Shown here piece after piece: positions 2,489 through 62,098 of a DNA stretch of 64,000 nt (its first letter is position 1; the number at the start of each line of letters is the position of its first letter). Source of the stretch: Escherichia phage QL01. The notes under the pieces are model-generated. The model saw only the letters and a program-made list of their open reading frames with translations, ran no database searches and was not told the origin of the DNA. A program made the position numbers and the translations under genes. The stretch lies in the sequence record NC_028847.1. One strand, written 5' to 3'.

Positions 2489-2798
2489 TTTTAACTACCT
2501 CATGTTGAACATATTCTCTGGTAGAACCTAGTTCAGCCAGAATTCTTCTCATAGAACCCATTGTACTTTTGTGCTCTCTGTGGCGATACATTATCTCTAA
2601 AACCTTTTCCTGGACCACAGGAGAGAGCGCCTGGTTATCTTTAATCTTTAAGGCAATAGATTTTACAGCCTTAAGGTATTCAAGTCCCTTACCGCTTGTA
2701 GTCACTACTCCTTCGTCCTTACAGTTACGAATGGCTGTTTCCATAAAGGATAGAGCCAGGTTGTCAGTGTTCACTATACTGTTATCTTGCATAATCAT
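2475..2798 (-). CDS. hypothetical protein
   Basis: 107 aa ORF with GAGGTGA SD; preceded by early-type promoter and terminator. Confidence 0.5.
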   Translation of the reverse strand: MIMQDNSIVNTDNLALSFMETAIRNCKDEGVVTTSGKGLEYLKAVKSIALKIKDNQALSPVVQEKVLEIMYRHREHKSTMGSMRRILAELGSTREYVQHEVVKNVKL

Positions 2799-2816
2799 AT
2801 TCTCACCTCTTAGAGA

Positions 2817-2846
2817 ATCGTATCATACTTTTAATCAGTTGTAAAC
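2817..2846 (-). promoter_or_regulatory. early-type sigma70 promoter (GTTTAC -35, TACGAT -10)
   Basis: Minus-strand GTTTAC, 18 nt spacer, TACGAT; follows terminator. Confidence 0.45.
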
Positions 2847-5849: not shown

Positions 5850-6060
5850 TGTAAGTTTCCTTCCAGAAGTCGGTGCCTTCAGCAGTGATTTCACGGAACA
5901 CTGCATAGATAGGATTTTTATCGCCTTGATTTTCGTATACATAAACTGACGATAAATGAGAAAACGTATCAGAATGTTCCTTTTGAACCACGATTAAATC
6001 AGGGTTGAACAGAACATCTTCAAATTCTTCACGAGTAGAGTTCACAGTAACTTTAGCCAT
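5842..6060 (-). CDS. hypothetical protein
   Basis: 72 aa ORF downstream of promoter cassette 6091-6120. Confidence 0.45.
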   Translation of the reverse strand: MAKVTVNSTREEFEDVLFNPDLIVVQKEHSDTFSHLSSVYVYENQGDKNPIYAVFREITAEGTDFWKETYNA

Positions 6061-6090
6061 TTTATTTTCCTCTCATTTGTTGATAGGGTA

Positions 6091-6120
6091 ATAGTATCAC
6101 ACTACTACCCTGTTGTATAC
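6091..6120 (-). promoter_or_regulatory. early-type promoter cassette
   Basis: GTATAC -35 variant, 18 nt, TACTAT; conserved CCTATCAAC leader. Confidence 0.45.
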
Positions 6121-6132: not shown

Positions 6133-6699
6133 TTATGCAAAATGAATATCAGCATACTCAACAATAAAACTTTCAGGAACTACTTTAAAGGTGCCAAGGA
6201 ACACGATGTTATACAGCTTAACACCTTCTTCAACCCATTGGTCTGTGATGTAACCGGACATACTAGTGGTTTCATAAGTCGGACCATACTTGCAATTGTA
6301 TTCAAACGGTTTAGGTGAAACGAAAAAGACACCTTTACCTAATTTCCATTTGAAATCAACACCAACATGAGATTGGTCAATAGTTTCAACGTCTTGAGCT
6401 ACTACGCCACGGATATCATTGCTTTCACATACATACCCATCATGGGATTCAACTTCTTCAACTACAGGAGCGATGTATCCGGTAAATTCAGTCGATTCCA
6501 AGAATTTAGCACGCACATAAGCGAATTGAGTTTCAGTTTGACCATTTTTAGGAATGATACGCACTTTTACTTCAGAATTTTCTACACTGACACCTTCTTT
6601 AAGTTGGATACTAACAACTTCAACTAAACAGCCTGCAGCTTTTGAACGAGACTTTTTGGATACACGAACAATACCGCCGATATCGGAAATAGTAATCAT
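6133..6699 (-). CDS. hypothetical protein, paralog of 6773-7321
   Basis: 188 aa; C-terminus GYITDQWVEEGVKLYNIVFLGTFKVVPESF shared with neighbouring ORF; own early-type promoter. Confidence 0.55.
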   Translation of the reverse strand: MITISDIGGIVRVSKKSRSKAAGCLVEVVSIQLKEGVSVENSEVKVRIIPKNGQTETQFAYVRAKFLESTEFTGYIAPVVEEVESHDGYVCESNDIRGVVAQDVETIDQSHVGVDFKWKLGKGVFFVSPKPFEYNCKYGPTYETTSMSGYITDQWVEEGVKLYNIVFLGTFKVVPESFIVEYADIHFA

Positions 6700-6741
6700 A
6701 ATTTTTCTCTCTTGGTTAAAGGTTTATTCTCCATGAGAGCC

Positions 6742-6770
6742 ATTATAACATGGCCCTCGATAAAGTAAAC
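6742..6770 (-). promoter_or_regulatory. early-type promoter cassette
   Basis: GTTTAC, 17 nt, TATAAT. Confidence 0.55.
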
Positions 6771-7321: not shown

Positions 7322-7827
7322 AATTTTCTCATTTCAATAAAATCTACGAGTTCGGCATAGGATTTGCGGAACATTAATTGACGGCTACCAATGACAACCT
7401 CATCTTCAGGGATTTCGTAAACAGCAAGATAGAATCCTTTAGAAGATAATTCTTCACGCTCTTCACGAGTGAACCAGCGCATCATATCATACTCGCTGGC
7501 AAAAGCAAAATGGTAGAGATTAACAAACCAACCTGGAATATAATCATCGCAGCCTTCATAATCAGGCTGGTCCCACTTAGTTCGAATGGTTTTATTAGAA
7601 TTTTCCACCAACAACTTGTCTTGACCTGGTAGCGGAATATTTTTATTATTGGTATGGTGGTGTCTAAAATTAGGTTTGTCGAAACCTACTTCTAATAACC
7701 AACCTTCGCTCCATTCATCAAACGAGCCTCTATACGGTGTTAATTGGCGGCACTGTTGGTGAGTGATTGCTATAACATCGCTGTTATCTAAGATACTGAA
7801 CGATGACTCCACTCGATAAATTTTCAT
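7318..7827 (-). CDS. hypothetical protein
   Basis: Track ORF trimmed to Met15 (MKIYRVESS) because the longer start lies inside promoter 7855-7883; GAGGAG SD. Confidence 0.5.
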   Translation of the reverse strand: MKIYRVESSFSILDNSDVIAITHQQCRQLTPYRGSFDEWSEGWLLEVGFDKPNFRHHHTNNKNIPLPGQDKLLVENSNKTIRTKWDQPDYEGCDDYIPGWFVNLYHFAFASEYDMMRWFTREEREELSSKGFYLAVYEIPEDEVVIGSRQLMFRKSYAELVDFIEMRKL

Positions 7828-7854
7828 TTTGTTCTCCTCATGTTGATAGGGTAG

Positions 7855-7883
7855 ATAATAACATGTCATGAGGAGAAGTAAAC
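7855..7883 (-). promoter_or_regulatory. early-type promoter cassette with 9-bp inverted repeat
   Basis: GTTTAC, 17 nt, TATTAT; arms CTCCTCATG/CATGAGGAG flank the -10. Confidence 0.55.
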
Positions 7884-10434: not shown

Positions 10435-11184
10435 TTAACCTCTAATCAGTGAAAAAATTGAAGCATTCAGCGGAAGACCTTTTTTCAACTTCATTTTGTC
10501 AATAAAAGAAAGGTGTTCTAAACGCTCCAGACCTTGAATAATTTTATCATACATATCGTAACGCGTTTCTGCTTCAGACAATTTAAACTTGACACGCCAA
10601 TCAGGCCCACCAATTAAAGATTTAAGACCCTTTTCCATAGTACCTATTGAAGCGTTAGAACCATGGATACGGGCCTTAACCGCGATGACAGAAGGGGTCT
10701 TATCAGTAGCTCCTGATTTAATAAGGTCCTTAAGACGTTTTTCACGCTTTTTAAGACCTCTTTGGGTATCTTTAATATTTTTAACTATTTTACGAATTTT
10801 ATAATAATTATCTGGGGTAACTTTAAAACTATTAGGCATTTTAGAACCACCTGAAATACGGGACGCTAAACGAGTCTGTGCACGTTTCAATTCATCTAAA
10901 GACAAATCAGCTCGCAACCCGTTGTACTTAACTTTAACCGGGATTACATTACCTTCGATATAACCTATATCGTTGTTAAAGCGTTCAAACGAAATCTTAT
11001 CTTTATCTGAATTCTCATCAAAGCGCTCGCCCGAATATGCACACACTTTTTGTTCAAGAAGTCTACGAACGTACTTACTAGACAGGTTAAAGTCCTTACC
11101 ACGTTTTTTGGCAGAGGCTTTAGTGTGTTCGCGACGTTTGTAAACCTTTAACTCAAATTCATCGTTAGTTTTAATAGTAGGCAT
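10435..11184 (-). CDS. Srd-position protein, lysine-rich (possible degenerate HNH-like segment)
   Basis: 249 aa basic protein at the T4 srd locus between dda and modA/B; identity by synteny and size only. Confidence 0.4.
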   Translation of the reverse strand: MPTIKTNDEFELKVYKRREHTKASAKKRGKDFNLSSKYVRRLLEQKVCAYSGERFDENSDKDKISFERFNNDIGYIEGNVIPVKVKYNGLRADLSLDELKRAQTRLASRISGGSKMPNSFKVTPDNYYKIRKIVKNIKDTQRGLKKREKRLKDLIKSGATDKTPSVIAVKARIHGSNASIGTMEKGLKSLIGGPDWRVKFKLSEAETRYDMYDKIIQGLERLEHLSFIDKMKLKKGLPLNASIFSLIRG

Positions 11185-11224
11185 AATATTTTTCTCATCT
11201 TACGGACGATTAGCTGATAGGTCT

Positions 11225-11253
11225 ATAGTATCATGTTGCTCGGTAAAGTAAAC
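11225..11253 (-). promoter_or_regulatory. early-type promoter cassette
   Basis: GTTTAC, 17 nt, TACTAT. Confidence 0.5.
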
Positions 11254-11322: not shown

Positions 11323-11937
11323 TCAGTAAGAAAGAACGGAAAGATTCCAAATGGTGTAATTATTCCATTTAGGATTTCTCTCAATAGAGTCTACGCGCAG
11401 CGTAGTTCCCGCAGGGAACATCATCTCATCTTCATCATTGATTAATTGTAAGTTTGCTACACGGGTAGATTCAGGAAATGCACCTGGGAACTCTTCAGGG
11501 GGCGCGGCACATAACATTTTAAAGATTTCTTCCTGATAATTGTACACAAATGGTGCATCATTAATACAAAAGATATTAAATGTGCCGTAGAAGTTATAAG
11601 ATGCGAAGTTACGAGCTACATTGAAATCTTTTGAGAAGCTCATTACTCGGTCGAATTCAATTACGGCACCTACACACATAGTAGATTCAAGATATGCCAT
11701 AGTCTTCTTAGAAATCCCACGGTACAACTTGTCAGGCACTACAGAAGTCAGGTTCTTACGAATAATTTTGTTCAGAGTTTCCTGGATAGTATCCGGTTTA
11801 TTTTCCATACACTGCCAGAGGGTACTCTGTTCTAAATCAGAATACACCTCATCAATTTCTATCTGAGTATTCTCACGGAAATCATCGCATTTGGCATTGT
11901 TGATAAATTCTGCTAATTTATGGCTTGGATATAACAT
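11323..11937 (-). CDS. modB: ADP-ribosyltransferase, ModB-like
   Basis: 204 aa; R-S-ExE signature (LYRG with Arg73, MSFSKD, NDEDEM); tandem with a paralog. Confidence 0.6.
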   Translation of the reverse strand: MLYPSHKLAEFINNAKCDDFRENTQIEIDEVYSDLEQSTLWQCMENKPDTIQETLNKIIRKNLTSVVPDKLYRGISKKTMAYLESTMCVGAVIEFDRVMSFSKDFNVARNFASYNFYGTFNIFCINDAPFVYNYQEEIFKMLCAAPPEEFPGAFPESTRVANLQLINDEDEMMFPAGTTLRVDSIERNPKWNNYTIWNLSVLSY

Positions 11938-11962
11938 ATTATTCTCCTCAGTTGATAGAAAG

Positions 11963-11992
11963 ATAGTACCACAAGCTTCCTTGCCTGTAAAC
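11963..11992 (-). promoter_or_regulatory. early-type promoter cassette
   Basis: GTTTAC, 18 nt, TACTAT. Confidence 0.5.
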
Positions 11993-12561
11993 TAAAAATC
12001 CAACATTTTTAAATGAATTGTTTTGTACTCGATTTCGTACGGGTCCCTTTTGACGGTTTCGATTTCAACAATCTCAAATCTTGATAGGCTGGAGACCATG
12101 AACTCACATTCAGTTTCAACCATATCATAGAGGTCAATACGGGTTTCATCTATTTCAAGCTCATCCACATTCCCTGCAAGAACAAGGTCGATAGCATGAT
12201 TGTAGTAGTCGAAAATGAACGGTGCATTCCTGAGACTTAAAATGGTTTTGGTTCCATATTCCCATGCCCCTGCGAATTGACGAGCCTGAGAGTATTGTGT
12301 ACTAAAAGAAGTAACTCGACCAGGAGACCATTGACAACCTACTGAAAGGAGCTCTAATTGCTCAAGTTCTCTGGTGGTAATCCCACGATACAACTCTACT
12401 GGAACCGCTGAAGTAACATGCTTGCGAACCAGTTTGTCAAGGTCGTAATGGAAGTTAGGGTCTTTTTTAGCATCCAGACATTTTTCTAAAAGATTCTGTT
12501 CGTGTTTTGAGAATTTGGAATTGATTCGGTCTTGATAAAGACATTTTTGTTCGATGTTCAT
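11992..12561 (-). CDS. modA: ADP-ribosyltransferase, ModA-like
   Basis: 189 aa; LYRGIT, SFSTQ and acidic ExE-like region; upstream member of the pair. Confidence 0.55.
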   Translation of the reverse strand: MNIEQKCLYQDRINSKFSKHEQNLLEKCLDAKKDPNFHYDLDKLVRKHVTSAVPVELYRGITTRELEQLELLSVGCQWSPGRVTSFSTQYSQARQFAGAWEYGTKTILSLRNAPFIFDYYNHAIDLVLAGNVDELEIDETRIDLYDMVETECEFMVSSLSRFEIVEIETVKRDPYEIEYKTIHLKMLDF

Positions 12562-12585
12562 ATGACCTCCGGTGATTTAGAGGTC

Positions 12586-12615
12586 ATTATAACATGAAGG
12601 GAGGAGGTGTAAAAC
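12586..12615 (-). promoter_or_regulatory. early-type promoter with inverted repeat
   Basis: GTTTTAC, 17 nt, TATAAT; arms GACCTC/GAGGTC. Confidence 0.45.
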
Positions 12616-13979: not shown

Positions 13980-14185
13980 AGGAAACCTCGTTTAAATTCA
14001 ACTTTATCAATATCATCAGTCTCGTGACGGATTTCGGCATTAAATTCGATAGAACCGTCTTCATGCATCATAAATGAATGGACAATAACTTCGGTATACC
14101 AAGGCGTATAAAAGTACTTTTTCAATACGTGGTTAGCGATAATTTCATCCAAAGTTTTATTAGGTTTAATCCAACGATTTAACAT
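13976..14185 (-). CDS. hypothetical protein
   Basis: Trimmed to Met13 with GAGGAGA SD. Confidence 0.45.
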   Translation of the reverse strand: MLNRWIKPNKTLDEIIANHVLKKYFYTPWYTEVIVHSFMMHEDGSIEFNAEIRHETDDIDKVEFKRGFL

Positions 14186-14256
14186 AGCATTCTCCTCTAT
14201 AAGATAAGACCATCTTAACATAACCTTCTTAGAAAGTAAACCCTTAAAACCAAAAA

Positions 14257-17439: not shown

Positions 17440-17725
17440 CTGTCACCTCTTTAACGATATTTTTGTTATCGAAATTGGCATCGCAATACAAAACATAGTT
17501 ATATTGCATAACACCGCTTGAAGCCAATTGGTCTGACACTTCTTTAACCATATCAGGGCGGTCGCGTTTAGTGATGTTCATGATATCAGCATAAATCTGA
17601 TGCTCAACCGCTTCTTGATCGGCAGTCATAGACCATTCACAAAGGTCTTTATCCAATCCAGCCGTAACTGGAGCCGTGCCACATGACGCTACTGTAAGGA
17701 TTGCTGCGATTAATAACTTTTTCAT
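17432..17725 (-). CDS. sp: periplasmic protein, Spackle-like (superinfection exclusion)
   Basis: Trimmed to Met11 giving 97 aa with signal peptide MKKLLIAAILTVASCG; position between 61 and dmd as T4 61.3. Confidence 0.5.
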   Translation of the reverse strand: MKKLLIAAILTVASCGTAPVTAGLDKDLCEWSMTADQEAVEHQIYADIMNITKRDRPDMVKEVSDQLASSGVMQYNYVLYCDANFDNKNIVKEVTGE

Positions 17726-17753
17726 AATGTTCTCCTCGGTAGTTGATAGGTCC

Positions 17754-17783
17754 ATAGTATCACTACCATAGACCGTTGTAAAC
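17754..17783 (-). promoter_or_regulatory. early-type promoter cassette
   Basis: GTTTAC, 18 nt, TACTAT. Confidence 0.5.
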
Positions 17784-18360: not shown

Positions 18361-18690
18361 TTAGATTTCCTCACAGAAGGCCCATTCAGCATGATAAACC
18401 GTAGCGCCTTTAGTATCATTTAAACAAACCACATCTACCGGAGCAATTACACGATAAAGACGAGGTTCTCCTCCCACTGAACGAGCTGCACGTCCAGCAT
18501 AAATCTTAGCCAAACCGATATCTTCAGTAAAGAACACACGATTTAGGTTTTTCTTACGACCGGTTTCAGACAGAACTCCTGTTTCCTCAGGAGGACAAAG
18601 CATATTACCGATATTAGCGACACTACAACTTCCATGGTAATACACTTTATATTCTGCTTTACAGTCGATGGTTTTCATTTTGTTCTCCAA
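18361..18690 (-). CDS. hypothetical protein
   Basis: 109 aa; own early promoter cassette upstream. Confidence 0.45.
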   Translation of the reverse strand: MENKMKTIDCKAEYKVYYHGSCSVANIGNMLCPPEETGVLSETGRKKNLNRVFFTEDIGLAKIYAGRAARSVGGEPRLYRVIAPVDVVCLNDTKGATVYHAEWAFCEEI

Positions 18691-18702
18691 GTTGATAGGT
18701 CT

Positions 18703-18731
18703 ATAGTATCACGCCTACAGGAGATGTAAAC
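18703..18731 (-). promoter_or_regulatory. early-type promoter cassette
   Basis: GTTTAC, 17 nt, TACTAT. Confidence 0.55.
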
Positions 18732-26614: not shown

Positions 26615-26847
26615 TGCTTAACAATAATGATTTGTGCATTTGATTTACGTTCAGCGACGATAGCCCAGATTAAAGCCACTACCCAACCAATCATCGTCCA
26701 GCCTAACAGGAGATTAAGGAAGAAAATTCCGACATTACTACGAGTGCCTCGCAGAAGAGCCAGAATCCATGGTAAAAAGTAACCGATGAACATAATAACC
26801 AGAGAACCGAATCCTAAAACACCAGCACTAACGATTAAAGCTTCCAT
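26611..26847 (-). CDS. imm: Imm-like membrane protein (superinfection immunity)
   Basis: 78 aa, two predicted TM helices; immediately upstream of gene 43 as in T4. Confidence 0.5.
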   Translation of the reverse strand: MEALIVSAGVLGFGSLVIMFIGYFLPWILALLRGTRSNVGIFFLNLLLGWTMIGWVVALIWAIVAERKSNAQIIIVKQ

Positions 26848-26877
26848 TGTAATTTCCTCATGTAGTTGATAGGAAGG

Positions 26878-26907
26878 ATACTACCACGTTCCTTGTGGTA
26901 TGTAAAC
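26878..26907 (-). promoter_or_regulatory. early-type promoter cassette
   Basis: GTTTAC, 18 nt, TAGTAT. Confidence 0.5.
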
Positions 26908-39160: not shown

Positions 39161-39486
39161 TTCGCTGCCTTAACAATTTTCAGGTCAACGAATTTTTTCT
39201 TACGTTGGTTTTTCATACGACGGATAGTTTTATCCGTGATTTCGCCAGGGCACCAAGCTTTGGATTCAACACCAAAGGCAGCGACATCGAATTCATCAAG
39301 GATATATTGAACCAGGATTTCACGAATACCGTTCTTACCAATTTTCTGGTCTTTAGAGTGCATGATTGGTAACAGTTCAGCAACCCATTGGTCAAGAACC
39401 TGAGGAGTTACAAAACCTGTTTTCATCAGTTCGTTTACTTTATCGAAAGCGAAAGAGTTCAGTACGTTTTTAATAGCTTGTGACAT
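39157..39486 (-). CDS. hypothetical protein
   Basis: Start at MSQAIKNV; leader nearly identical to that of gene at 45854-46696. Confidence 0.45.
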   Translation of the reverse strand: MSQAIKNVLNSFAFDKVNELMKTGFVTPQVLDQWVAELLPIMHSKDQKIGKNGIREILVQYILDEFDVAAFGVESKAWCPGEITDKTIRRMKNQRKKKFVDLKIVKAAK

Positions 39487-39554
39487 AATAATTTCCTCAG
39501 TTTTAAAGTTATAATCCGTAGGACCATTATACTCTGGTCCCAAGAGTTTGTAAA

Positions 39555-39755
39555 CTATTTTTGACTCATTGCACCTTTCCAGCCTTCGTACATAGATGCA
39601 GCTGAAATTAATAAAGCGCCTGAACAACTTGAATATTTGTGGTTCCAAAACCAGTTCAGAAAAACTTCGTCATCAATACCTTGGGCTATCATATTTTCAA
39701 AGAACTGACGACGAGCTTCAGCAATTCGCTGTGATAATTTAGATTCAGGATTCAT
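39555..39755 (-). CDS. hypothetical protein
   Basis: 66 aa ORF. Confidence 0.4.
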   Translation of the reverse strand: MNPESKLSQRIAEARRQFFENMIAQGIDDEVFLNWFWNHKYSSCSGALLISAASMYEGWKGAMSQK

Positions 39756-40445: not shown

Positions 40446-40624
40446 GATTTGATTTCCTTAGCTATTGAACAAAACACGCTACGGTCACATACCATCATTG
40501 GAATATTTCTATGGTCCAGTACACGATACCATACGTCTGAATCGCTAGCAGCAATTACACGAACCGCACGCCCATTCACCAAATAATACTGGTCGGCTTT
40601 AATTTCTTTATCTTGGATAGTCAT
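40442..40624 (-). CDS. hypothetical protein
   Basis: 60 aa ORF downstream of promoter cassette 40654-40682. Confidence 0.4.
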   Translation of the reverse strand: MTIQDKEIKADQYYLVNGRAVRVIAASDSDVWYRVLDHRNIPMMVCDRSVFCSIAKEIKS

Positions 40625-40653
40625 AATGTTCTCCTCATGTGTTGATAGGATAG

Positions 40654-40682
40654 ACTATAACACGTGAGGAGAGGAAGTAAAT
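40654..40682 (-). promoter_or_regulatory. early-type promoter cassette with inverted repeat
   Basis: ATTTAC, 17 nt, TATAGT; arms CTCCTCA(C/T)GTG. Confidence 0.45.
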
Positions 40683-43700: not shown

Positions 43701-44707
43701 TTCAGCAGCTCCAGAGCCTGTTCAAGACGGTCTAAACGATTGGTAGACTCTTCCCAAAGTTTCTTGGCAGCAGTATATTGGCCAGTCAGTTTTTTGTTGA
43801 TAGCAAGGGCGTCTTTATACGCTTTTTCCAAGGCAACGACTTCCGGTAACTTGGATTTAGTAATTGGTGTAGGGGCCATGATAGGGCTGTTCAAGTCGTT
43901 AATCAAATCTTCTAATGTAGCAGGCTCTTTATCAGTGTTCACAATTTCCTCACATTTTTCTTTGTAAATTTCAGCATCAGTTTTTGGAACGGTACATTTG
44001 ATTTCACGGACTGTTACTAAGACCTCATATCCTTTCCAGCCTAAGTGGTGTTTAACTTCTTGGGTCTCATATTTCTCTACGGTATCCATCAGAGCTAAAG
44101 CTTGTTCGATAGTATTCAAGGTATCGTAAGCAATATCTTGATACTTTACAACTTCCGCATCATCTTTAGGTTTCCTATTAGGTGACCAAATAACAGAAAT
44201 AATAGCTTTTCCTTTATAACTATTTGTTTTAATCATGCAATTAGCCATCGGGTGAATAGTACGACAATCACCGGAAACTATAGTTTTAGAGGCCGCTTTG
44301 AGAATTAATGCAGAGTTAGCCTTGAATTCGCTAACCCAACGTTGCGGAAATAAACTATTAGGGTCCATACCTTTAATTTTGATATAACCTTTTATGGTAT
44401 CACCAAACCATTTGTAGCTAACAACACGGTTGGAACCTGGATATTTCTCTTTACCGAACTCAGAAAGGATGTCCTTATTGACCAGGCGCGAAAGCAGTCG
44501 AGAACCTTTAAATGTTTTAATGATATCATGAATGCACAAACGGCCTGCAATCTTTTCGATTTCAGCTTTGAAACAGCGCGATAATGCATCATCAATTTGG
44601 TCGACCCATTTATTGATATTAGAAACTATTACCTCGTATGGGGTTAACGGAGGGGTGTTGGTAGTGATATACGTAGTAAAGGCATTGATGTATTCAGTAC
44701 GAGTCAT
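43697..44707 (-). CDS. hypothetical protein with C-terminal coiled coil
   Basis: 336 aa; own promoter cassette 44734-44763. Confidence 0.5.
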   Translation of the reverse strand: MTRTEYINAFTTYITTNTPPLTPYEVIVSNINKWVDQIDDALSRCFKAEIEKIAGRLCIHDIIKTFKGSRLLSRLVNKDILSEFGKEKYPGSNRVVSYKWFGDTIKGYIKIKGMDPNSLFPQRWVSEFKANSALILKAASKTIVSGDCRTIHPMANCMIKTNSYKGKAIISVIWSPNRKPKDDAEVVKYQDIAYDTLNTIEQALALMDTVEKYETQEVKHHLGWKGYEVLVTVREIKCTVPKTDAEIYKEKCEEIVNTDKEPATLEDLINDLNSPIMAPTPITKSKLPEVVALEKAYKDALAINKKLTGQYTAAKKLWEESTNRLDRLEQALELLK

Positions 44708-44733
44708 GATATTCTCCTCAGTAGATTTAAAAG

Positions 44734-44763
44734 ATTATACTCCATCCATCCTTGGATGTAAAC
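44734..44763 (-). promoter_or_regulatory. early-type promoter cassette
   Basis: GTTTAC, 18 nt, TATAAT. Confidence 0.55.
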
Positions 44764-46759: not shown

Positions 46760-47284
46760 TTATGCGAGAACCGTCTTTAAACGCTCTTCAAATTTCTGAA
46801 GCAGAGCTTGGCGTTCAGCTCGTTGTGATTTGTACTGCTCGATACGACCTGAAGTGAGGGCGTACTGTTCGTTTACTGATTCCCGCATGAATTCAGGAAT
46901 CTCTTTACAAGCTTTGATTTCGTCAAACTTATCAATAACAGCTTGTTGTTCAGCAATCAGATTATCGAAATAAGCGATATCAGATTTAACGTTTGCCAGG
47001 TCAGATTCGGTAGGCATTAAACGTTTGTTACGTTCAGCTTGATAAGCTTGATTGGTTTCACGACTCCAGTGAAGAGTACGTTTTTTGTTAGTGTTTTTAT
47101 AGAGCTCTACAATACCAACTGAATCGATGACAACAATCCAGTTCCAACGGCTTTTGTAAATCTCTCCTCCAGATACAGTAATCTCATTACCACAAGCAAC
47201 GTCGTTAAAGAACTTGCTTTGTTTTTCGGATTTGAAATTACCATTGTTATAATTGATGAGTGAAAAAATATCTTTAGCGTTCAT
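46760..47284 (-). CDS. hypothetical protein with C-terminal coiled coil
   Basis: 174 aa; promoter cassette 47311-47339. Confidence 0.5.
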   Translation of the reverse strand: MNAKDIFSLINYNNGNFKSEKQSKFFNDVACGNEITVSGGEIYKSRWNWIVVIDSVGIVELYKNTNKKRTLHWSRETNQAYQAERNKRLMPTESDLANVKSDIAYFDNLIAEQQAVIDKFDEIKACKEIPEFMRESVNEQYALTSGRIEQYKSQRAERQALLQKFEERLKTVLA

Positions 47285-47310
47285 GTTAACCTCCAGTAGT
47301 TGATAGGTCT

Positions 47311-47339
47311 ATAGTATCATTTCTACTGGAGATGTAAAC
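47311..47339 (-). promoter_or_regulatory. early-type promoter cassette with inverted repeat
   Basis: GTTTAC, 17 nt, TACTAT; arms CTCCAGTAG/CTACTGGAG. Confidence 0.55.
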
Positions 47340-47692: not shown

Positions 47693-48673
47693 TTATTTCA
47701 GAAGTGTAACTTCAGCGATTTCGCTCCAGTCATTTTTATCGGTGGCAATGAAGTCCGCCAGATAAAGAGCTGTACGTAATGATACGTTACGAAGACGAGA
47801 TACATTAGCCTTCATCCATGCTAAAGCTTGGTAAGTCTCGGCATCAGTCAGACCACGGTTTTGCATCATATCAGTGGACAGGATAACGTCTTCAACACGA
47901 ACCATAATCTCTTCGTTCGAGTGAACTCCGAGGTCTAAGTAAACTGAACGCGATACTAAAGCCTGGAGGTGTGGAGCAAGTTTAGTTCCACGCTCTAATT
48001 CACGGTCAATATCAACGTTGGTGATGAACACGATGGTGCCTTCATACTCAAATTCTTTATCGATATTTTTATCATCAAGATAAGAACTTGAAGTGCTCCA
48101 GCACACCTTACGTTTTTCACCAGTATCCAATGCTGCTTTTAACAGGTTCAGGATATCCATATCAGAGAATACATCAACATCATCAATAAGAAGAACACTA
48201 TTAGGGCCGCGGTTATTCCAAAGCTGCTCGTAAAGACCGATTCCACTAATCTTTCCGTTGATTGATTTATATTCGATAGTTTCATTTTCGTGGGCATTCT
48301 GTAATGCTTTATCCAAAGAATATGTTTTACCAATACCTGCGGCACCAGAGATGATAAGGGAACGAATTTTACCATCGATGATTCCATTAGTCATCATGTT
48401 CATTACTTTAAAACGTTTGTTAATGCGATGTTTCATTTCTTCAGCGGATTCAGTAACAACTGCAGGAGCTTCAGCACCTTCCATTTCAACGTCACATTTG
48501 AACACCCATACACCACGTTCAACACCATCAATCTGTACAAATACCTTACCATCACCGAGGTGAGCTTCGGATTCATGAATTTTATTAGGGAACCAGGTTT
48601 TACCTGAACTCATGAACGTACCGGAGATTACATTACCGCGATAGATACCTTTGTTGATTTTGATAGTTAACAT
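47693..48673 (-). CDS. AAA+ ATPase with N-terminal extra domain
   Basis: Start at Met49 because the longer ORF covers promoter 48711-48739; Walker A GAAGIGKT, Walker B LLIDDVD. Confidence 0.55.
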   Translation of the reverse strand: MLTIKINKGIYRGNVISGTFMSSGKTWFPNKIHESEAHLGDGKVFVQIDGVERGVWVFKCDVEMEGAEAPAVVTESAEEMKHRINKRFKVMNMMTNGIIDGKIRSLIISGAAGIGKTYSLDKALQNAHENETIEYKSINGKISGIGLYEQLWNNRGPNSVLLIDDVDVFSDMDILNLLKAALDTGEKRKVCWSTSSSYLDDKNIDKEFEYEGTIVFITNVDIDRELERGTKLAPHLQALVSRSVYLDLGVHSNEEIMVRVEDVILSTDMMQNRGLTDAETYQALAWMKANVSRLRNVSLRTALYLADFIATDKNDWSEIAEVTLLK

Positions 48674-48710
48674 TATATTCTCCATTTCACTCAGTAGATT
48701 TGATAGGTCC

Positions 48711-48739
48711 ATAATAACATGCTCTACGAAGGTGTAAAC
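48711..48739 (-). promoter_or_regulatory. early-type promoter cassette
   Basis: GTTTAC, 17 nt, TATTAT. Confidence 0.5.
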
Positions 48740-51528: not shown

Positions 51529-51765
51529 TCACCAGTATTTGTTGATAGTAGAAATTAATTCTTGGGCTTGGGTAGTCTTCAGTTTACATCCACAACCCTT
51601 TAATGTGTCTTTAAGGAGCCACGGTTCCTTGAGCTCGTCCTTTTCTAGACGAATTCTGTATCCTCGATAATCAGCGAAGATACTTCGGTCGTCGAATATC
51701 TTAATCTCAAGGATACGACCGTTGATTTCATATTCTAATGAAACCGTAGTACTTGTAAGTTTCAT
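51529..51765 (-). CDS. hypothetical protein
   Basis: 78 aa; promoter cassette 51794-51822 upstream. Confidence 0.45.
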   Translation of the reverse strand: MKLTSTTVSLEYEINGRILEIKIFDDRSIFADYRGYRIRLEKDELKEPWLLKDTLKGCGCKLKTTQAQELISTINKYW

Positions 51766-51793
51766 ACTGTTCTCCTCATTAGTTGATAGGTCT

Positions 51794-51822
51794 ATAGTAT
51801 CATGTTCCTAGAGGATGTAAAC
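51794..51822 (-). promoter_or_regulatory. early-type promoter cassette
   Basis: GTTTAC, 17 nt, TACTAT. Confidence 0.5.
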
Positions 51823-55201: not shown

Positions 55202-55213
55202 GAGACCTCATTA

Positions 55214-55672
55214 TTAAAGATAGATTACTTTCGTGCTGGTTTTACCTTCTAAACGTTTAGAGTTAACAAATGCCATACGACATTTAAGGGAATATCCTTT
55301 ATCAGGATGTTTACGGTCTACTGTCATACCTAGCCATAAGGTTTTATCGGTAATTTCGAGACGCAATGGACGATACACTTTACCAGGGACAATTTCGGAT
55401 TCTACATCAGGTAGAGGTTCCTGGATTAAAAATTCATGAATTTCTTTAACATGGTTATGGAGTTGCTTGAATAAAGCAAAAACGTATTTTTCGTCGATTT
55501 CACGTTGGATAGCACGGTCCAACAAGTGATTAGAGTACTTAATAAAGAAGGCTGGGACTCCGCTCTTGATGGCGGCTTTTTTGATGGACGTATTCAGTTC
55601 ACGGAATTCGGTTTCGAACTGACGACGTAATTTATTGCGGCGGATGAATACTTCTGAATTAATTTCTGACAT
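55214..55672 (-). CDS. regB: RegB site-specific endoribonuclease
   Basis: 152 aa; strong match to T4 RegB (EVFIRRNKLRR.FE.EFR, YSNHLLDRAIQREIDE). Confidence 0.85.
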   Translation of the reverse strand: MSEINSEVFIRRNKLRRQFETEFRELNTSIKKAAIKSGVPAFFIKYSNHLLDRAIQREIDEKYVFALFKQLHNHVKEIHEFLIQEPLPDVESEIVPGKVYRPLRLEITDKTLWLGMTVDRKHPDKGYSLKCRMAFVNSKRLEGKTSTKVIYL

Positions 55673-55700
55673 TTTGTAATCTCCTGTAGTTGATAGGTCT

Positions 55701-55729
55701 ATAGTACCACGTCTACAGGAGATGTAAAC
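55701..55729 (-). promoter_or_regulatory. early-type promoter cassette with inverted repeat (regB)
   Basis: GTTTAC, 17 nt, TACTAT; arms CTCCTGTAG/CTACAGGAG. Confidence 0.55.
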
Positions 55730-55733
55730 TGCT

Positions 55734-55985
55734 TTATTCTTGGAATGGGGTAAGTTTTCCAGCAGCTGAACAAATTTCTACCAGTACAGGGTAAAACTCT
55801 TTCACTTGTTCAAGGCGTTGGGCTGCATACTGTACTTCACCTTCTTCGAGACAAGCCATTTGGTCGTCAAGCAAGTATTTGTGGTAGCCAGTACAGGCTT
55901 CACCGATGATACGCTGGAAATCTTGTAAACTTTCAATTTTCATCAGTATTTTTCCTCGGGTTGGAAAACGGAACGACACGCCCAC
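55734..55985 (-). CDS. hypothetical protein
   Basis: 83 aa. Confidence 0.4.
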   Translation of the reverse strand: MGVSFRFPTRGKILMKIESLQDFQRIIGEACTGYHKYLLDDQMACLEEGEVQYAAQRLEQVKEFYPVLVEICSAAGKLTPFQE

Positions 55986-57409: not shown

Positions 57410-57709
57410 TTAGAAAGAACCAGAACCTCTAATTGTGTTCTGGCGACCTTTATTTTCTAATTCGGAGTGGTCGATTTCATATGCTTGTGCTACGCCAAAG
57501 GCCTTTTTAACTTTAGCTAAAGAACCTTTAGATGTAACAATATTAAAAGTATTACCTTTGGTAAAATCAACAAAATCGACTTGTACGCCCTGTTTACCGA
57601 GGCTTGCTACAATAGCATCAACATATTCTTGGTCTAAATTGCCTTGAACTCCAATTTGAAATGCTTTAGGAGCTTTGGCTTCTGTGATAAATTCTTGATA
57701 AGTTTTCAT
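57410..57709 (-). CDS. internal protein (capsid-targeting sequence)
   Basis: 99 aa; N-terminal CTS MKTYQEFITEA typical of T4 internal proteins. Confidence 0.6.
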   Translation of the reverse strand: MKTYQEFITEAKAPKAFQIGVQGNLDQEYVDAIVASLGKQGVQVDFVDFTKGNTFNIVTSKGSLAKVKKAFGVAQAYEIDHSELENKGRQNTIRGSGSF

Positions 57710-57752
57710 TGTTATTCCTTAAGTTGATAGAAGTATTCTATCACGGATTTAA

Positions 57753-58169
57753 TTAAGCGTAAATAGCCTTGCCATAATGTTTGTACCAGGTAGGACGCTG
57801 TGCAATTTTTTCATCCAAACGGGTCTGAGATATAGCAATAGAAGCTTCGTGTGGAGTATAGTCACCACGGAATTCCTGAGGAATGTCACTAATGTCCTGG
57901 ACAGTAGTATCCTTGATATTAAAACCACGTTTTAAACATTCGGCTATAAGCTCAATTTGTCGCTTACGTAAAAATTCAAGCTTATCGTAAAAGAATGTAA
58001 CATGGCCTGTGCCAAGGATAAAAGTAGGACTGATTTTGAAATCACGGACACGTTTACCATTAGCAACATGCTTACGAACTGCACCGAAAACACGTGGTAA
58101 TTCACGATATTCAGCCATTAAGTGTTGGTCAGCCAATTCAGATACTAAGGTAAGGTTGATACGAGTCAT
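57753..58169 (-). CDS. denV: endonuclease V (pyrimidine dimer DNA glycosylase)
   Basis: 138 aa; essentially identical to T4 DenV ([29 protein letters not shown]...). Confidence 0.95.
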
Positions 58170-58196
58170 TTTTAATCTCCTGTAGTTGATAGGTCT

Positions 58197-58225
58197 ATAG
58201 TATCATGACTACAGGAGATGTAAAC
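58197..58225 (-). promoter_or_regulatory. early-type promoter cassette with inverted repeat (denV)
   Basis: GTTTAC, 17 nt, TACTAT; arms CTCCTGTAG/CTACAGGAG. Confidence 0.55.
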
Positions 58226-58249: not shown

Positions 58250-58846
58250 TTAATTACCACGGGCTGCATTAGCAACGGCGTAAGCGTACTGAATATTAGC
58301 GTCTTTAAACGTACCTTTAGAGGTATCTATCTCTGCCTTAAAGCCGCCTTTAACCATAACATCAGCAAATTCTTTACGGAAAGTCATTGCATCAAGACCT
58401 TTCCATGCGGATTTATGCTTGGCAAATTCAAGACCGGCGAAGTTAACTGCTTTAGCCAATTTATTATCAATAGTCCATTTACCTGCTTTAGGTACAAACA
58501 CCGGGCCTTTCTGTTTAGAGAACAGTTTTAAATTCCAGCGACGAAGGTCACCGTCAGCTTTAACAAAAGCTGCGTCCAAGTTACTAGCAACAACATCTTG
58601 GATATGGGCAAATTTAAGTCCATCAGCTTCAATATTTAGGTCGTTACGCCAGCGAAGTCCTTCCCAGGCGAAAGCTTTAAAATCAGAAGCTTTTGTAGCC
58701 AAGTACCGTTCAATAGGAGCTGTTTTAGCGTCAAAACCGTTTCCTGGGTTGTCAACGCCGTTTCCTTTGTAAGTCCACTCATCTTTATTAATGCCTTGGA
58801 CCTTTCCTACAGAAGCTTCGGCGATAAATTCTTTATACGTTTTCAT
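58250..58846 (-). CDS. internal protein (capsid-targeting sequence)
   Basis: 198 aa; N-terminal MKTYKEFIAEA. Confidence 0.6.
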   Translation of the reverse strand: MKTYKEFIAEASVGKVQGINKDEWTYKGNGVDNPGNGFDAKTAPIERYLATKASDFKAFAWEGLRWRNDLNIEADGLKFAHIQDVVASNLDAAFVKADGDLRRWNLKLFSKQKGPVFVPKAGKWTIDNKLAKAVNFAGLEFAKHKSAWKGLDAMTFRKEFADVMVKGGFKAEIDTSKGTFKDANIQYAYAVANAARGN

Positions 58847-58899
58847 ACGGGTTCCTTAAAGGAAAATATTTTAATTGGTCTGTTCAAGTAACTGTAGAT

Positions 58900-58928
58900 A
58901 TACTATCACAATTCTAGGAGATGTAAAC
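58900..58928 (-). promoter_or_regulatory. early-type promoter cassette
   Basis: GTTTAC, 17 nt, TAGTAT. Confidence 0.5.
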
Positions 58929-59327: not shown

Positions 59328-59808
59328 ATGCTTTCCAAGTACCTGTTTTAAATGTTGAAATCACGCGCTTAGCACGATTAGGAGTTTGTTTATACCAACG
59401 GGATTGAGCCAGGTTAACTGCCGCATCGTTCCAACGTTTCTGTTGGAGCATACGTAAAGAGTTAGTGAACCCTGCTACGCCTGCTTCACCCATTTGGAAG
59501 ACCATGTTAATTAAAGCACAACGACGAACTTCGTCCAGTACATCATAAACAGGTTTCAATTTAGGATTACGCAGAATAGCTCTACGAGCATTTTCAACCG
59601 ATTGGTTAAAGAGTTGTTCAGCTTCAGCCATAGTAATACGACCATTACAAACTCGACCCATAAGCTTATCAAGTTCAGCACGAGCAACATCTTTAGAAGG
59701 GTTCTTAGTAATCAATTGGCCAATACCAATAGTCCAATAACCTTCAGTGTCTTTATAAAGATTTAAATCAAGACCTTCGTCTTGACGTAACATATCAAAA
59801 ATATCCAT
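59314..59808 (-). CDS. e: lysozyme (endolysin)
   Basis: 164 aa; T4 lysozyme match incl. catalytic E11/D20/T26 context ([21 protein letters not shown]). Confidence 0.95.
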
Positions 59809-59812
59809 AATA

Positions 59813-59838
59813 CCTCCTGAGTATAGGAGGTATTTATA
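59813..59838 (-). promoter_or_regulatory. late promoter (TATAAATA) plus SD-sequestering hairpin for gene e
   Basis: TATAAATA on minus strand; CCUCCU...AGGAGG inverted repeat pairs the SD; late start falls inside the hairpin. Confidence 0.6.
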
Positions 59839-61807: not shown

Positions 61808-62020
61808 TTACTTTTTGTTGAAAAAGTACATTTTACCTTTAGGGGATAAGGATACACGAAGTGCGTTACCAATACCAACTGAACATTTAACCAGGTCAGC
61901 AGATTTCAATTCACCAAATGCTTGACGAAGGTCACCGTCACGAGTGTTAACCATCAGGCATTTAGCACCAGCTGCACGAACTTCGTTTAACATGTTGATT
62001 GCTTGGTTAGAAAGTTTCAT
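61808..62020 (-). CDS. hypothetical protein
   Basis: Trimmed to Met27 because the longer ORF overlaps promoter 62057-62085. Confidence 0.4.
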   Translation of the reverse strand: MKLSNQAINMLNEVRAAGAKCLMVNTRDGDLRQAFGELKSADLVKCSVGIGNALRVSLSPKGKMYFFNKK

Positions 62021-62056
62021 TTTATTCTCCATTTCACTCTGTTGTTTTGATAGGTC

Positions 62057-62085
62057 TATAGTATCACACCTATAGACCTTGTACA
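62057..62085 (-). promoter_or_regulatory. early-type promoter cassette (variant -35) with palindrome
   Basis: GTGTAC -35 variant, 17 nt, TACTAT; GGTCTATAG...CTATAGACC. Confidence 0.4.
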
Positions 62086-62098
62086 CTGTTTTGTGCAA

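Follow-up and report, generated by a model that had tools for sequence, protein, structure and literature searches.

Early promoters embedded in Shine-Dalgarno-pairing hairpins in a Dhakavirus: a putative early-only translational gate in T4-like phages

Early-promoter cassettes of the window

The stretch analysed here, called the window, comprises 64,000 nucleotides of Escherichia phage QL01 (NC_028847.1) and represents the early region of a T4-type phage resembling JS98 (Dhakavirus). Its minus strand carries about 22 T4-type early-promoter cassettes (GTTTAC-N17-18-TAnnAT), and all 22 that were catalogued are followed by a Shine-Dalgarno (SD) sequence and the ATG of an open reading frame of at least 60 amino acids (Table 1). 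The motif GTTTAC-N15-20-TAYWAT has 16 strict matches in the window where 0.45 are expected, of which 15 fall on the minus (coding) strand, and CTATCAAC has 16 versus 2.1 expected. Only the T4-specific motif is enriched: a generic sigma-70 promoter scan (TTGACA/TATAAT) gave 56 calls against 52.9 expected, without overall enrichment. Its calls include 48738, 58224, 55728, 51821 and 47338, with TG. By sequence these are T4-type early promoters, with GTTTAC, a spacer of 17 ± 1 nt, TGn, TAnnnT and a gene downstream. They share hexamers, spacing, extended -10 and A-rich upstream region with the early promoters described for T4 (GTTTAC, ~17 nt, TGn TAnnAT; PMC2988021, PMC1524935), to which the promoter of T4 regB belongs as a typical member (PMC3014915).

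The site that drew attention, 55681-55729 on the minus strand, precedes the RegB orthologue and reads GTTTAC AT[CTCCTGTAG]ACGTGG TACTAT AGACCTATCAA[CTACAGGAG]ATTACAAAATG, with the arms in brackets. The cassette anatomy that an earlier note described here is confirmed. The note's family of about 20 agrees with the 22 promoters found, but the SD lies in a hairpin arm in only six of them.

The cassettes are the Dhakavirus version of the PeSL (promoter-early stem-loop) modules known from other T4-like phages, namely RB49/phi1 (Arbiol et al. 2010, PMC2839356), PST/T4 and nt-1/KVP40 (Comeau et al. 2014, PMC4122927); PeSL-like sequences in JS98 are mentioned in the first of these papers. Like PeSLs, they are repeated intergenic modules in which an AT-rich upstream stretch is followed by a strong early promoter of sigma-70 type and which also contain a stable stem-loop, the SD and the ATG start codon. 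The earlier note did not identify them as cassettes of the known PeSL or T4 early-promoter kind. The family is present again in all JS98-like contigs. A search of the whole window against Rfam 15 gave 0 matches at the gathering threshold.

Table 1. Early-promoter cassettes of the window, their paired segments and neighbouring terminators. Cassettes are cited in the text by their higher coordinate; opening gives the predicted cost (kcal/mol) of exposing the ribosome-binding site (RBS) in read-through versus promoter-initiated RNA.
Feature	Position	Strand	Elements	Opening
regB (flagged site; RegB orthologue), SD-masking	55670..55729	-	-35 55724-55729; -10 55701-55706; predicted start site ~55694; 5' arm ATCTCCTGTAG 55713-55723; 3' arm CTACAGGAGAT (SD inside) 55679-55689; ATG 55672	12.1 vs 4.5
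denV, SD-masking	58167..58225	-	-10 58197-58202; 5' arm ATCTCCTGTAGT 58208-58219; 3' arm ACTACAGGAGAT 58175-58186; ATG 58169	20.3 vs 3.4
nrdC.8, SD-masking	47282..47339	-	5' arm ATCTCCAGTAG 47323-47333; 3' arm CTACTGGAGGT 47289-47299; ATG 47284	18.5 vs 2.8
55.6, SD-masking	40622..40682	-	5' arm TCTCCTCACGTGTT 40659-40672; 3' arm AACACATGAGGAGA 40630-40643; one C.A mismatch; ATG 40624	15.0 vs 2.8
modB, SD-masking, short-range geometry	12559..12614	-	5' arm ATGACCTC 12580-12587 (end of -10 + discriminator); 3' arm GAGGTCAT 12562-12569, abutting ATG 12561	15.9 vs 3.4
motB.2, SD-masking	7825..7883	-	5' arm TTCTCCTCATG 7867-7877; 3' arm CATGAGGAGAA 7832-7842; ATG 7827	17.6 vs 4.7
Before 107-aa ORF, possible weak short-range mask	2796..2846	-	ATTCTC 2813-2818 with GAGAAT 2799-2804; terminator just upstream, 2851-2868	10.8 vs 3.6
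-10-enclosing cassette	62018..62086	-	AGGTCTATAG 62070-62079 pairs CTATAGACCT 62052-62061	4.7 vs 3.8
Before internal-head-protein gene, -10-enclosing type	57707..57764	-	TGATAGAA 57736-57743 pairs TTCTATCA 57725-57732	
55.2, -10-enclosing	39484..39555	-	TGGGACCA 39535-39542 pairs TGGTCCTA 39519-39526	
sp (spackle), -10-enclosing	17723..17783	-	GGTCTATGGTA 17764-17774 pairs TACTATGGACC 17749-17759	
motB, -10-enclosing	6697..6770	-	GAGGGCCAT 6750-6758 pairs ATGGCTCTC 6735-6743; one G.U	
cef, -10-enclosing	6058..6120	-	AGGGTAGTAGT 6101-6111 pairs ACTATTACCCT 6085-6095; one G.U	
Cassette with weak bulged SD pairing only	51763..51822	-	TCCTC/GAGGA + TAG/CTA	4.9 vs 6.9
Intrinsic terminator immediately upstream of 51822	51832-51860	-		
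Cassette with SD-masking 5' arm kept, 3' arm truncated	18676..18731	-	CTCCTGTAG; CTTGGAG	6.3 vs 2.3
Terminator upstream of 18731	18742-18761	-		
nrdC.10, no hairpin	48671..48739	-	terminator upstream, 48759-48780	
mrh.2, no hairpin	14183..14241	-	terminator upstream, 14252-14273	
ipIII, no significant stem across promoter	58844..58928	-		
nrdC.4, no significant stem	44705..44763	-		
imm, small spacer-internal hairpin only	26845..26907	-	ACCAC..GTGGT	
modA, no significant stem	11935..11992	-		
srd, no significant stem	11182..11253	-	unmasked in all relatives examined	
Gene e late promoter (positive control)	59806..59838	-	TATAAATA in RBS-masking hairpin ACCTCCT/AGGAGGT	14.3 vs 4.6

Two hairpin geometries

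Folding of all 22 cassettes separates three groups, and a single hairpin model for the whole family is ruled out. In six the stem pairs the SD, in six it encloses the -10, and about ten have no significant stem; a stem of at least 7-8 bp is tied to the promoter in 12-13 of the 22. The SD-pairing group precedes denV, regB, modB, motB.2, nrdC.8 and 55.6, with the cassette at 2846 as a possible seventh. These are the six sites that the earlier note had listed, and folding gives every one of them an SD-containing hairpin. Their stems measure 8-14 bp, longer than the 6-9 bp first proposed, and the long-range stems close loops of 23 nt. With the start site assumed to lie 7 nt past the -10, the 5′ arm ends upstream of it in all six, so that transcripts from the embedded promoter are predicted to lack this arm, and only 0-6 nt separate the SD-containing 3′ arm from the ATG. 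The arms were said to flank the -10; at modB the effective 5′ arm consists of the last part of the -10 and the discriminator rather than the spacer, which holds a second, weaker 5′ copy (ACCTCC). The nrdC.8 arms differ from those of denV and regB by a compensated T>A / A>T change. This arrangement departs from the published PeSLs, since 6 of the 22 use the SD itself as 3′ arm, carry the -10 together with the start site in the loop and lack a T tract behind the stem.

The -10-enclosing hairpins end at the predicted start site, 15-35 nt away from the SD, and cannot act on it. At 62086, for example, the SD lies 31 nt downstream of the hairpin and is uninvolved. These hairpins resemble the RB49 PeSLs, where the stem-loop is often found between the -35 and -10 or over the -10. 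Their arms also change in concert: the L031 orthologue of the 55.2 cassette carries a compensated change (GGGAGC..GCTCC), and the sp orthologue in MX01 has wholly different yet complementary arms, AGGGATAAT/ATTATCCCT.

In the six SD-pairing cassettes, opening the RBS is predicted to cost 12-20 kcal/mol (mean 16.6) in read-through RNA versus ~3.6 in promoter-initiated RNA, as in-silico equilibrium values that take no account of folding during transcription or of ribosomes translating the gene upstream. The predicted unpaired probability of the SD in read-through RNA is 0.00, with the SD held in a stable helix. The remaining cassettes give ~4-5 versus 3-4 kcal/mol. Shuffling the spacer removes the effect wherever the arm lies in the spacer, and masking at modB survives it. 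Gene e served as positive control; by the identical measure its hairpin in T4 gives 15.5 versus 1.9-4.7, and the SD-pairing cassettes match the values of this hairpin in both the window and T4. In T4 the gene e hairpin is reported to cut translation 100-fold (PMC3014915). The gene e logic, which had been extended to early promoters at large, fits the six cassettes, where it held in each computational test applied, but not the rest of the family.

In four of the six cassettes just 8-11 nt separate the stop codon of the upstream gene from the 5′ arm, close enough that a ribosome terminating there might loosen the outermost base pairs. This raises the option of translational coupling, in which read-through RNA would be translated only when the ribosome ending the upstream gene reaches the stem base and melts the stem. 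However, the gap is ~30 nt for denV and modB, and a ribosome at the stop, given its footprint, would open at most the first 0-3 of 11-14 bp. Coupling also requires no embedded promoter, yet one is always present, and this explanation is very improbable.

Covariation and conservation of the stems

Arms that vary between copies and stay complementary within each copy, as the earlier note had reported, are far more frequent than chance allows: perfect stems of at least 8 bp occur in 6 of 22 cassettes versus 0.08 expected from spacer shuffles. Covariation, for which it had called for a statistical test, is significant. Aligned without bias, 43 distinct cassettes give a covariation score of 0.254; shuffled sets give 0.143 ± 0.013, and 0 of 500 reached the observed value. 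In the same alignment every slid register scores at most 0.075. RNAalifold run on 16 diverse SD-masking cassettes recovers the same core helix of 7 pairs, 3 of them compensated, and lends the masking stem weak support, since differences in arm register from lineage to lineage bring the consensus energy close to zero.

The few non-Watson-Crick positions inside the stems are unevenly distributed, with 11 of the G.U type and one of the A.C type, although G.U was scored as an ordinary mismatch during the stem search. Counted as events the ratio is about 8:2, and the cassettes are paralogues and orthologues whose counts are not independent. Four further positions in the T4 regB and nrdC.8 stems are G.U by eye, the denV orthologue stems add three more, and uncompensated A.C mismatches occur in some orthologues (window 40682, MX01 7642). 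This bias points to pairing in the sense-strand RNA. G-T pairs have been noted in PeSL stems as well.

The same structure is found at orthologous genes of T4, RB69 and many further T4-like phages with different arm sequences. For regB the arms are TTTTCCTCTTGACTG/CAGTTAAGAGGAGAA in T4, TTCTCCTCTAGTTG/CAACTAGAGGAGAA in RB69 and TTTCTCCTCTTTATG/CATAAAGAGGAGAAA in L053. The T4 denV promoter is almost identical to the denV cassette of the window, and in a set drawn from diverse phages masking is present at 27 of 32 distinct denV promoters, in two geometries. Together, the masked regB and denV promoters comprise 22 distinct arm pairs, and in 41 orthologues of these two genes the end of the 5′ arm falls at positions -24 to +1, counted from the predicted start. 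The promoter of modB, identified by tblastn as the gene downstream of both the 12614 cassette and T4 13186, is masked in T4 and the Dhakaviruses, again with different arms. The srd promoter is never masked in the relatives examined, and the motB orthologue loci could not be placed in register. For modB, srd and motB a single-protein search reached close Dhakavirus relatives only, and gene specificity consequently rests on denV and regB compared with a baseline of ~20-25% masked early promoters per genome. Masking had been proposed for the family as a whole; it holds for about a quarter of early promoters, the others being -10-enclosing or hairpin-free. It is also not indispensable for the genes concerned, as a non-masking -10-enclosing hairpin replaces it elsewhere at regB (L044-51, L055-56) and nrdC.8 (RB69).

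Cassettes may also move as units or in parts. One hybrid cassette (L035:307) carries arms of two different types, and whole cassettes have been replaced at orthologous genes (window 17783 versus MX01 18916); both are consistent with shuffling between copies. The inverted repeats could act at the DNA level, by forming a cruciform, binding a dimeric protein or serving as recombination signals for cassette shuffling, or they could serve no function and owe their perfect pairing to template switching at quasi-palindromes and to duplication or gene conversion of cassettes. PeSLs have been proposed as recombination sites (PMC2839356, PMC4122927). The mismatched arms of the hybrid suggest recombination within the loop, and many cassettes are clearly copies of each other. 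Quasi-palindrome template switching is reportedly a documented mutational route in T4, according to Ripley. A protein operator would, however, keep its sequence, whereas at least 22 arm pairs differ; cruciform and template-switch models are strand-symmetric, yet G.U exceeds A.C by 11:1; and loops of 23 nt are unfavourable for cruciforms. Neither the constant geometry relative to start site and SD, nor the frequency of masking at denV (27/32 versus 20-25%), nor the anti-correlation with terminators described below is predicted by these models, which have very little likelihood.

Hairpins, terminators and read-through RNA

Early transcripts are known to run on into downstream genes (PMC2988021), and the distribution of hairpins appears related to such read-through. 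Five of the ~10 hairpin-free cassettes sit just downstream of an intrinsic terminator, and jumbo-phage denV genes with a terminator are unmasked. In a pooled set that includes orthologues and whose members are not independent, a promoter hairpin occurs in 1 of 15 cassettes with an upstream terminator versus 35 of 72 without (Fisher p = 0.003); in the window alone the anti-correlation is not significant (p = 0.26 with the automated classifier, ~0.03 with manual classification). Since both hairpin types occur without an upstream terminator, both SD-masking and -10-enclosing hairpins probably deal with read-through RNA.

How they do so is where the published view of PeSLs differs. Those papers interpret the stem-loop, which is G/C-rich in RB49 and precedes the promoter in PST/T4, as a terminator or attenuator and draw the SD as a separate 3′ element. 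Applied here, the stem-loops would insulate each cassette by ending or reducing upstream transcription and the involvement of the SD would be incidental. One G/C-rich RB49 PeSL stem-loop did cut lacZ expression about as much as rrnB terminators (PMC2839356), the near-exclusive occurrence of both hairpin types at cassettes without an intrinsic terminator is as expected of a terminator substitute, and the exchange of SD-masking and -10-enclosing hairpins at orthologous genes suggests a shared role. The promoter hairpins nevertheless lack the combination of G+C-rich stem, short loop and T/U tract that marks intrinsic terminators. No T tract follows them, their 3′ flank being A-rich (ATTACAAAATG, ATCAAAAC), and a terminator scan of 45000-64000 calls the true terminators at 51860-51835 and 48781-48764 and none of the promoter hairpins; the reading was downgraded on these grounds. 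The 23-nt loops of the long-range stems are also unlike those of intrinsic terminators, and the SD-specific pairing of 27 of 32 denV promoters in two geometries, along with a 3′ arm that always ends 0-6 nt from the ATG, is left unexplained. Termination is an unlikely account of these stems.

A further option is that the hairpin shields GGAG-containing SDs on read-through RNA from the RegB endoribonuclease and spares long polycistronic RNAs cuts at internal early-gene SDs. RegB cleaves the GGAG of such SDs, and folding of the RNA into secondary structure is protective (PMC3014915). In T4 the SDs of regB, motB.2 and nrdC.8 are among those cleaved (PMC1702504), and the masked SD GGAGAACAAAA at 7883 fits the strong RegB/S1 consensus GGAGRAYARAA. 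The reading was downgraded because the T4 denV SD is RegB-resistant through its 3′ context (PMC1702504), yet the denV hairpin is the most widely conserved (27/32). Many unmasked cassettes, moreover, have equally good RegB sites (18731: GGAGAACAAAA). Shielding would at any rate be a by-product of the masking structure and is compatible with translational masking; as the reason for the hairpins it is most unlikely.

A proposed early-only gate

Masking of the SD on read-through RNA is the explanation that probably applies at the six cassettes, where the promoter lies inside a predicted RNA hairpin. Its 5′ arm is in the -35/-10 spacer or, at modB, in the end of the -10 and the discriminator, always upstream of the predicted start site, and its 3′ arm is the leader with the SD. 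Sequence anatomy, covariation and conservation between phages are observed, and the course of events is inferred from them. RNA polymerase that started at early or middle promoters further upstream would copy both arms, and on this read-through RNA the 8-14 bp stem may close over the SD and prevent translation of that gene. RNA from the embedded promoter would begin 3-5 nt before the 3′ arm, lack the 5′ arm and be freely translated. The likely outcome is an 'early-only' gate: denV, regB, modB, motB.2, nrdC.8 and 55.6 would be made only while their own early promoter fires, and would still be transcribed by read-through yet remain silent on that RNA.

Such a gate would be the mirror image of the 'late-only' gate at T4 genes e, soc, 49 and I-TevI. 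There, too, the promoter lies between the arms or within the first arm and the second arm has the SD/AUG; long transcripts are masked and internal-promoter transcripts open (PMC3014915), as is predicted here. Those gates, however, use gp55-dependent late promoters (TATAAATA) and delay translation (same source), whereas the promoters of the window are early sigma-70 promoters and their gate would confine translation to the first minutes, across a set of early genes in place of single late or endonuclease genes. Within the window TATAAATA is present only at the gene e control and not at the early cassettes. By these features the cassettes would work like the e gate, outside the described late-promoter set. 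Hairpins that sequester the RBS are also known from homing-endonuclease genes, such as mobE of phage Aeh1 and segB of T4 (cited in PMC3014915); unlike those of the window, they are not described with an internal early promoter in the accessible part of that source.

SD masking at early promoters was not found described in the reachable literature. Those T4 early-promoter consensus descriptions that were accessible (PMC2988021, PMC1524935) regard the spacer as carrying no information and are silent on any complementarity of the spacer to the leader or SD; all that a T4 omics paper says about RegB is that it is an early product. It is possible, if somewhat short of probable, that the Tevenvirinae including T4 share a conserved, previously unrecognised early-only gate on about a quarter of their early promoters. 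It might confine potentially harmful enzymes (the DenV nuclease, the RegB RNase and the ModB ADP-ribosyltransferase) to the first minutes of infection and, together with -10-enclosing hairpins and terminators, might make each cassette an insulated, portable unit.

T4 is among the most thoroughly studied systems of gene expression, yet the abrupt stop in the synthesis of many of its early proteins is described as incompletely understood (PMC3014915). If confirmed, a gate of this kind would add a simple cis-acting layer of early shut-off that depends neither on RegB nor on the inactivation of promoters. It would explain the immediate-early protein profile of genes that lie inside long read-through units, and some of the PeSL stem-loops, so far seen as terminators, would be reinterpreted. 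Insulated units would also help to explain the free shuffling of cassettes. The prediction is testable in T4 itself, at denV, regB, modB, nrdC.8 and motB.2. A promoter placed inside an RBS-masking hairpin would, in addition, be a compact design for insulating synthetic genes from upstream transcription.

Early-promoter cassettes and their hairpins

The window covers the early-gene region of a T4-type myovirus, from rIIA to genes past e, with nearly every gene on the minus strand. Its nearest records are vB_EcoM_FB (98%) and AnYang, MX01 and C6 (about 95%); MX01 is classified in the Tevenvirinae, genus Dhakavirus (JS98-like phages). The motif GTTTAC-N15-20-TAYWAT has 16 matches where 0.45 would be expected, and 15 of these lie on the minus strand; for the leader CTATCAAC the count is likewise 16, with 2.1 expected. 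A looser motif search, requiring in addition a Shine-Dalgarno sequence (SD) and the ATG of an ORF, catalogued about 22 cassettes, named here by their 5′ coordinate on the minus strand. One of them, 55729-55670(-), reads GTTTAC AT[CTCCTGTAG]ACGTGG TACTAT AGACCTATCAA[CTACAGGAG]ATTACAAAATG. Motif enrichment, leader enrichment and catalogue size together establish the promoter family as real, in agreement with the earlier note, which had counted about 20 near-identical early-promoter cassettes. The conserved leader ATCAAC(TAC) forms the first transcribed bases in 12 window cassettes (e.g. 55689-55696, 58185-58192, 47299-47306) and is common to T4 and RB69 early promoters; in SD-masking cassettes it contributes to the 3′ arm, yet hairpin-free ones keep it too. 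Downstream of a further early-promoter-like sequence, GTTTACAACGATTCCGAAATAGAGTATAAT at 42353-42382(-), the scan found no SD-preceded start codon. This sequence appears from the ORF and CDS tables to lie inside coding sequence, and is kept in MX01 (43983) and T4 (47452).

Every cassette was folded, which separated two hairpin classes (Table). In class A, a helix of 8-14 bp pairs the 5′ arm with leader and SD and stops 0-6 nt 5′ of the ATG. In class B the helix surrounds the -10 alone: a 5′ arm in the spacer pairs with the -10 end and discriminator. This helix reaches no further than the predicted start site, leaving 15-35 nt to the SD, which it cannot mask. Folding gave no significant stem in about ten window cassettes. 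The proposal that inverted repeats place the SD in one hairpin arm thus stands for 6 of the 22 cassettes, including all six sites cited for it; the figure of about 20 fits the promoters only. The genes 3′ of class A cassettes are denV, regB, nrdC.8, 55.6, modB and motB.2. At orthologous genes (regB, nrdC.8), class B swaps with the SD-masking type. The cassette at 18676-18731 retains the SD-masking 5′ arm CTCCTGTAG with a truncated 3′ arm. At its MX01 counterpart (L001:19493), one G>A change (CTGTAG to CTATAG) re-pairs the retained arm with CTATAG overlapping the end of the -10 hexamer (TACTATAG), resulting in a short -10-enclosing pairing. The two sequences show a putative route by which one hairpin type becomes the other.

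Promoter hairpins and intrinsic terminators of the window, all on the minus strand
Feature	Cassette	Span
Class A hairpin	58225	
Class A hairpin	55729	
Class A hairpin	47339	
Class A hairpin	40682	
Class A hairpin	12614	
Class A hairpin	7883	
Class B hairpin	62086	62052-62079
Class B hairpin	57764	57725-57743
Class B hairpin	39555	39519-39542
Class B hairpin	17783	17749-17774
Class B hairpin	6770	6735-6758
Class B hairpin	6120	6085-6111
UUCG-tetraloop terminator		48759-48780
UUCG-tetraloop terminator		14252-14273
UUCG-tetraloop terminator		51832-51860
UUCG-tetraloop terminator		18742-18761
UUCG-tetraloop terminator		2851-2868

Predicted masking of the SD

Transcription was taken to start 7 nt past the -10, as is general for sigma-70 promoters. 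RNA from this predicted start was compared with read-through RNA from 120 nt upstream of the -35, using the predicted cost of opening the SD-to-AUG segment. For class A the predicted cost is 12-20 kcal/mol (mean 16.6) in read-through RNA vs 3.6 in promoter-initiated RNA, for class B 3.9 vs 4.2, and for the remaining cassettes 5.1 vs 3.1. An SD hidden in read-through transcripts and free in promoter-initiated ones, as had been supposed for the family at large, is therefore predicted for roughly one cassette in four and not for the rest. Spacer shuffling removes the masking except in the modB cassette, whose effective arm is the -10 end plus discriminator.

The gene e hairpin, which holds a late promoter and reportedly lowers translation 100-fold (PMC3014915), served as positive control. 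In the window it is found at 59806-59838(-), where ACCTCCT/AGGAGGT pair to mask the ribosome-binding site of gene e and the 5′ arm overlaps the late promoter TATAAATA; opening costs 14.3 vs 4.6 kcal/mol there and 15.5 vs 1.9-4.7 in T4. Class A energies are similar, so their predicted strength equals that of a validated example. A translational-coupling role for the hairpins has little to recommend it: the gap between the upstream stop codon and the 5′ arm is 8-30 nt, a distance at which a terminating ribosome would leave most of the stem closed.

Covariation and probable pairing in RNA

Stems of 8 or more uninterrupted Watson-Crick pairs occur in 6 of 22 cassettes vs 0.08 expected from spacer shuffles, none of which (n=500) gave more than 2 such cassettes. 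Viral contigs were scanned with a pattern fixing promoter and leader alone, both arms being free, which together with MX01 yielded 150 distinct cassettes. These include complementary arm pairs not found in the window, such as CATCTCCATTAG/CTAATGGAGATG, TTCTCCAGTAGTTG/CAACTACTGGAGAA and TTCTCCTCTAGTTG/CAACTAGAGGAGAA, and orthologous compensations, for example GGGACC..GGTCC (window 39555) vs GGGAGC..GCTCC (contig L031). The compensatory covariation claimed in the earlier note was confirmed on the full set of 43 distinct cassettes that carry the CCTATCAAC leader, aligned without bias and irrespective of whether they form a hairpin. The class A helix scored 0.254 vs 0.143 +/- 0.013 in shuffles (0/500 attained 0.254) and at most 0.075 in every slid register; doubly changed cells numbered 43 vs 20.5 expected. 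RNAalifold on 16 diverse maskers recovered the class A core helix, 3 of its 7 pairs being compensated; arm registers differ among lineages, which brings the consensus energy close to zero.

Internal non-Watson-Crick pairs in the stems are G.T or T.G (11), A.C (1) and T.C (1), or roughly 8:2 for G.U to A.C as independent events; in class B, 9/9 are of G.U type. The stem search counted G.U as an ordinary mismatch and hence was not biased towards it. Cruciforms, protein-binding palindromes and template-switch homogenisation are all strand-symmetric; the G.U bias speaks for sense-strand pairing, i.e. for RNA. A DNA-level or neutral origin of the repeats, contradicted also by the sequence diversity of the arms and their fixed geometry, is highly improbable. 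The single T.C mismatch belongs to a hybrid cassette, L035:307 (IMGVR_UViG_641509422_000001), in which a CATTAG-type 5′ arm meets a CTACTGG-type 3′ arm with only 5+3 bp paired. Its mismatched arms indicate recombination within the loop between two cassettes.

Conservation across phages

At all four orthologous T4 promoters, those of regB, nrdC.8, motB.2 and denV, the SD is paired. By eye, the regB stem has 15 bp with both non-Watson-Crick positions G.U, and the nrdC.8 stem 12 bp with two G.U and an arm displaced towards the -10. T4 modB is also masked (14.1 vs 2.7). RB69 masks regB with a 14-bp stem and denV with a 10-bp stem, again of different sequence, and at nrdC.8 carries a class B hairpin. 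In IMG/VR contigs, 27 of 32 distinct early-type denV promoters count as masked, with a read-through excess of 6 kcal/mol or more over promoter-initiated RNA. Of 14 distinct regB promoters, 7 are masked and the others have class B hairpins. Per genome, the baseline among predicted early promoters is 6/21, 5/25, 6/27 and 3/14; among the controls, masking is seen in every modB relative and in no srd relative. Distinct arm pairs total 22, and the 5′ arm invariably ends at -24 to +1, counted from the predicted start. The idea that the hairpin shields the SD against RegB is hard to credit, as the T4 denV SD is already RegB-resistant (PMC1702504), yet the best-conserved hairpin is that of denV.

Terminator context

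Five window cassettes lie directly 3′ of UUCG-type intrinsic terminators (GGAACCTTCGGGTTCCTTTTTT and relatives), all five without a strong hairpin. Across four pooled phages, whose orthologues are non-independent, hairpins are present at 1/15 promoters with a terminator vs 35/72 without (Fisher p = 0.003). This anti-correlation implies that hairpins occur where read-through RNA is expected. It would also fit hairpins that are themselves terminators or attenuators, as would the class A/class B interchange. However, the promoter hairpins have no T tract and none in 45000-64000 is called by the terminator scan, 23-nt loops do not fit, and SD involvement is specific and conserved, which leaves this explanation unlikely. 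The denV promoters at four jumbo-phage loci, each with an upstream terminator, are unmasked. At these loci (L085, L086, L087, L091; 345-378 kb contigs) the -35 TTGAC lies within the terminator stem and the T tract is the promoter spacer (GGGTTGACTTCGGTCAGCCCTTTTTGCTATAAT), a very compact overlap. In the window, UUCG terminators and adjoining hairpin-free early promoters form composite terminator-promoter modules; those at 48759-48780 and 14252-14273 are identical copies.

Relation to known systems

The probable function of class A is an early-only translational gate, whereby a gene's own early promoter would be the sole source of its translation. The window cassettes are of the same kind as PeSLs, repeated early promoter and stem-loop modules (Arbiol 2010, PMC2839356; Comeau 2014, PMC4122927) with proposed roles as terminator/attenuator and in modular shuffling. 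The 2010 paper already points to such sequences in JS98, and L035:307 is the product expected from the recombination proposed for PeSLs. As published, however, PeSLs have the SD as a separate 3′ element. In T4, the genes e, soc, 49 and I-TevI are known to have their ribosome-binding sites masked around an internal promoter, which in every case is a late one (PMC3014915). The early-only gate would be a new variant combining these two known kinds. Of the papers covered, namely reviews of T4 transcription and post-transcriptional control, a five-genome promoter survey and papers on RegB, none mentions early promoters in SD-masking hairpins; older literature may do so. Judged from its promoter sequences, the arrangement is kept in T4 itself, which allows direct testing. 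Upstream of T4 gene 1 (L038:25429, T4 about 75429), the ribosome-binding site is masked in read-through RNA (13.3 vs 3.1 kcal/mol); a MotA-box-like TGCTT at about -30 marks this as probably a middle promoter, and middle promoters may employ the same gate.
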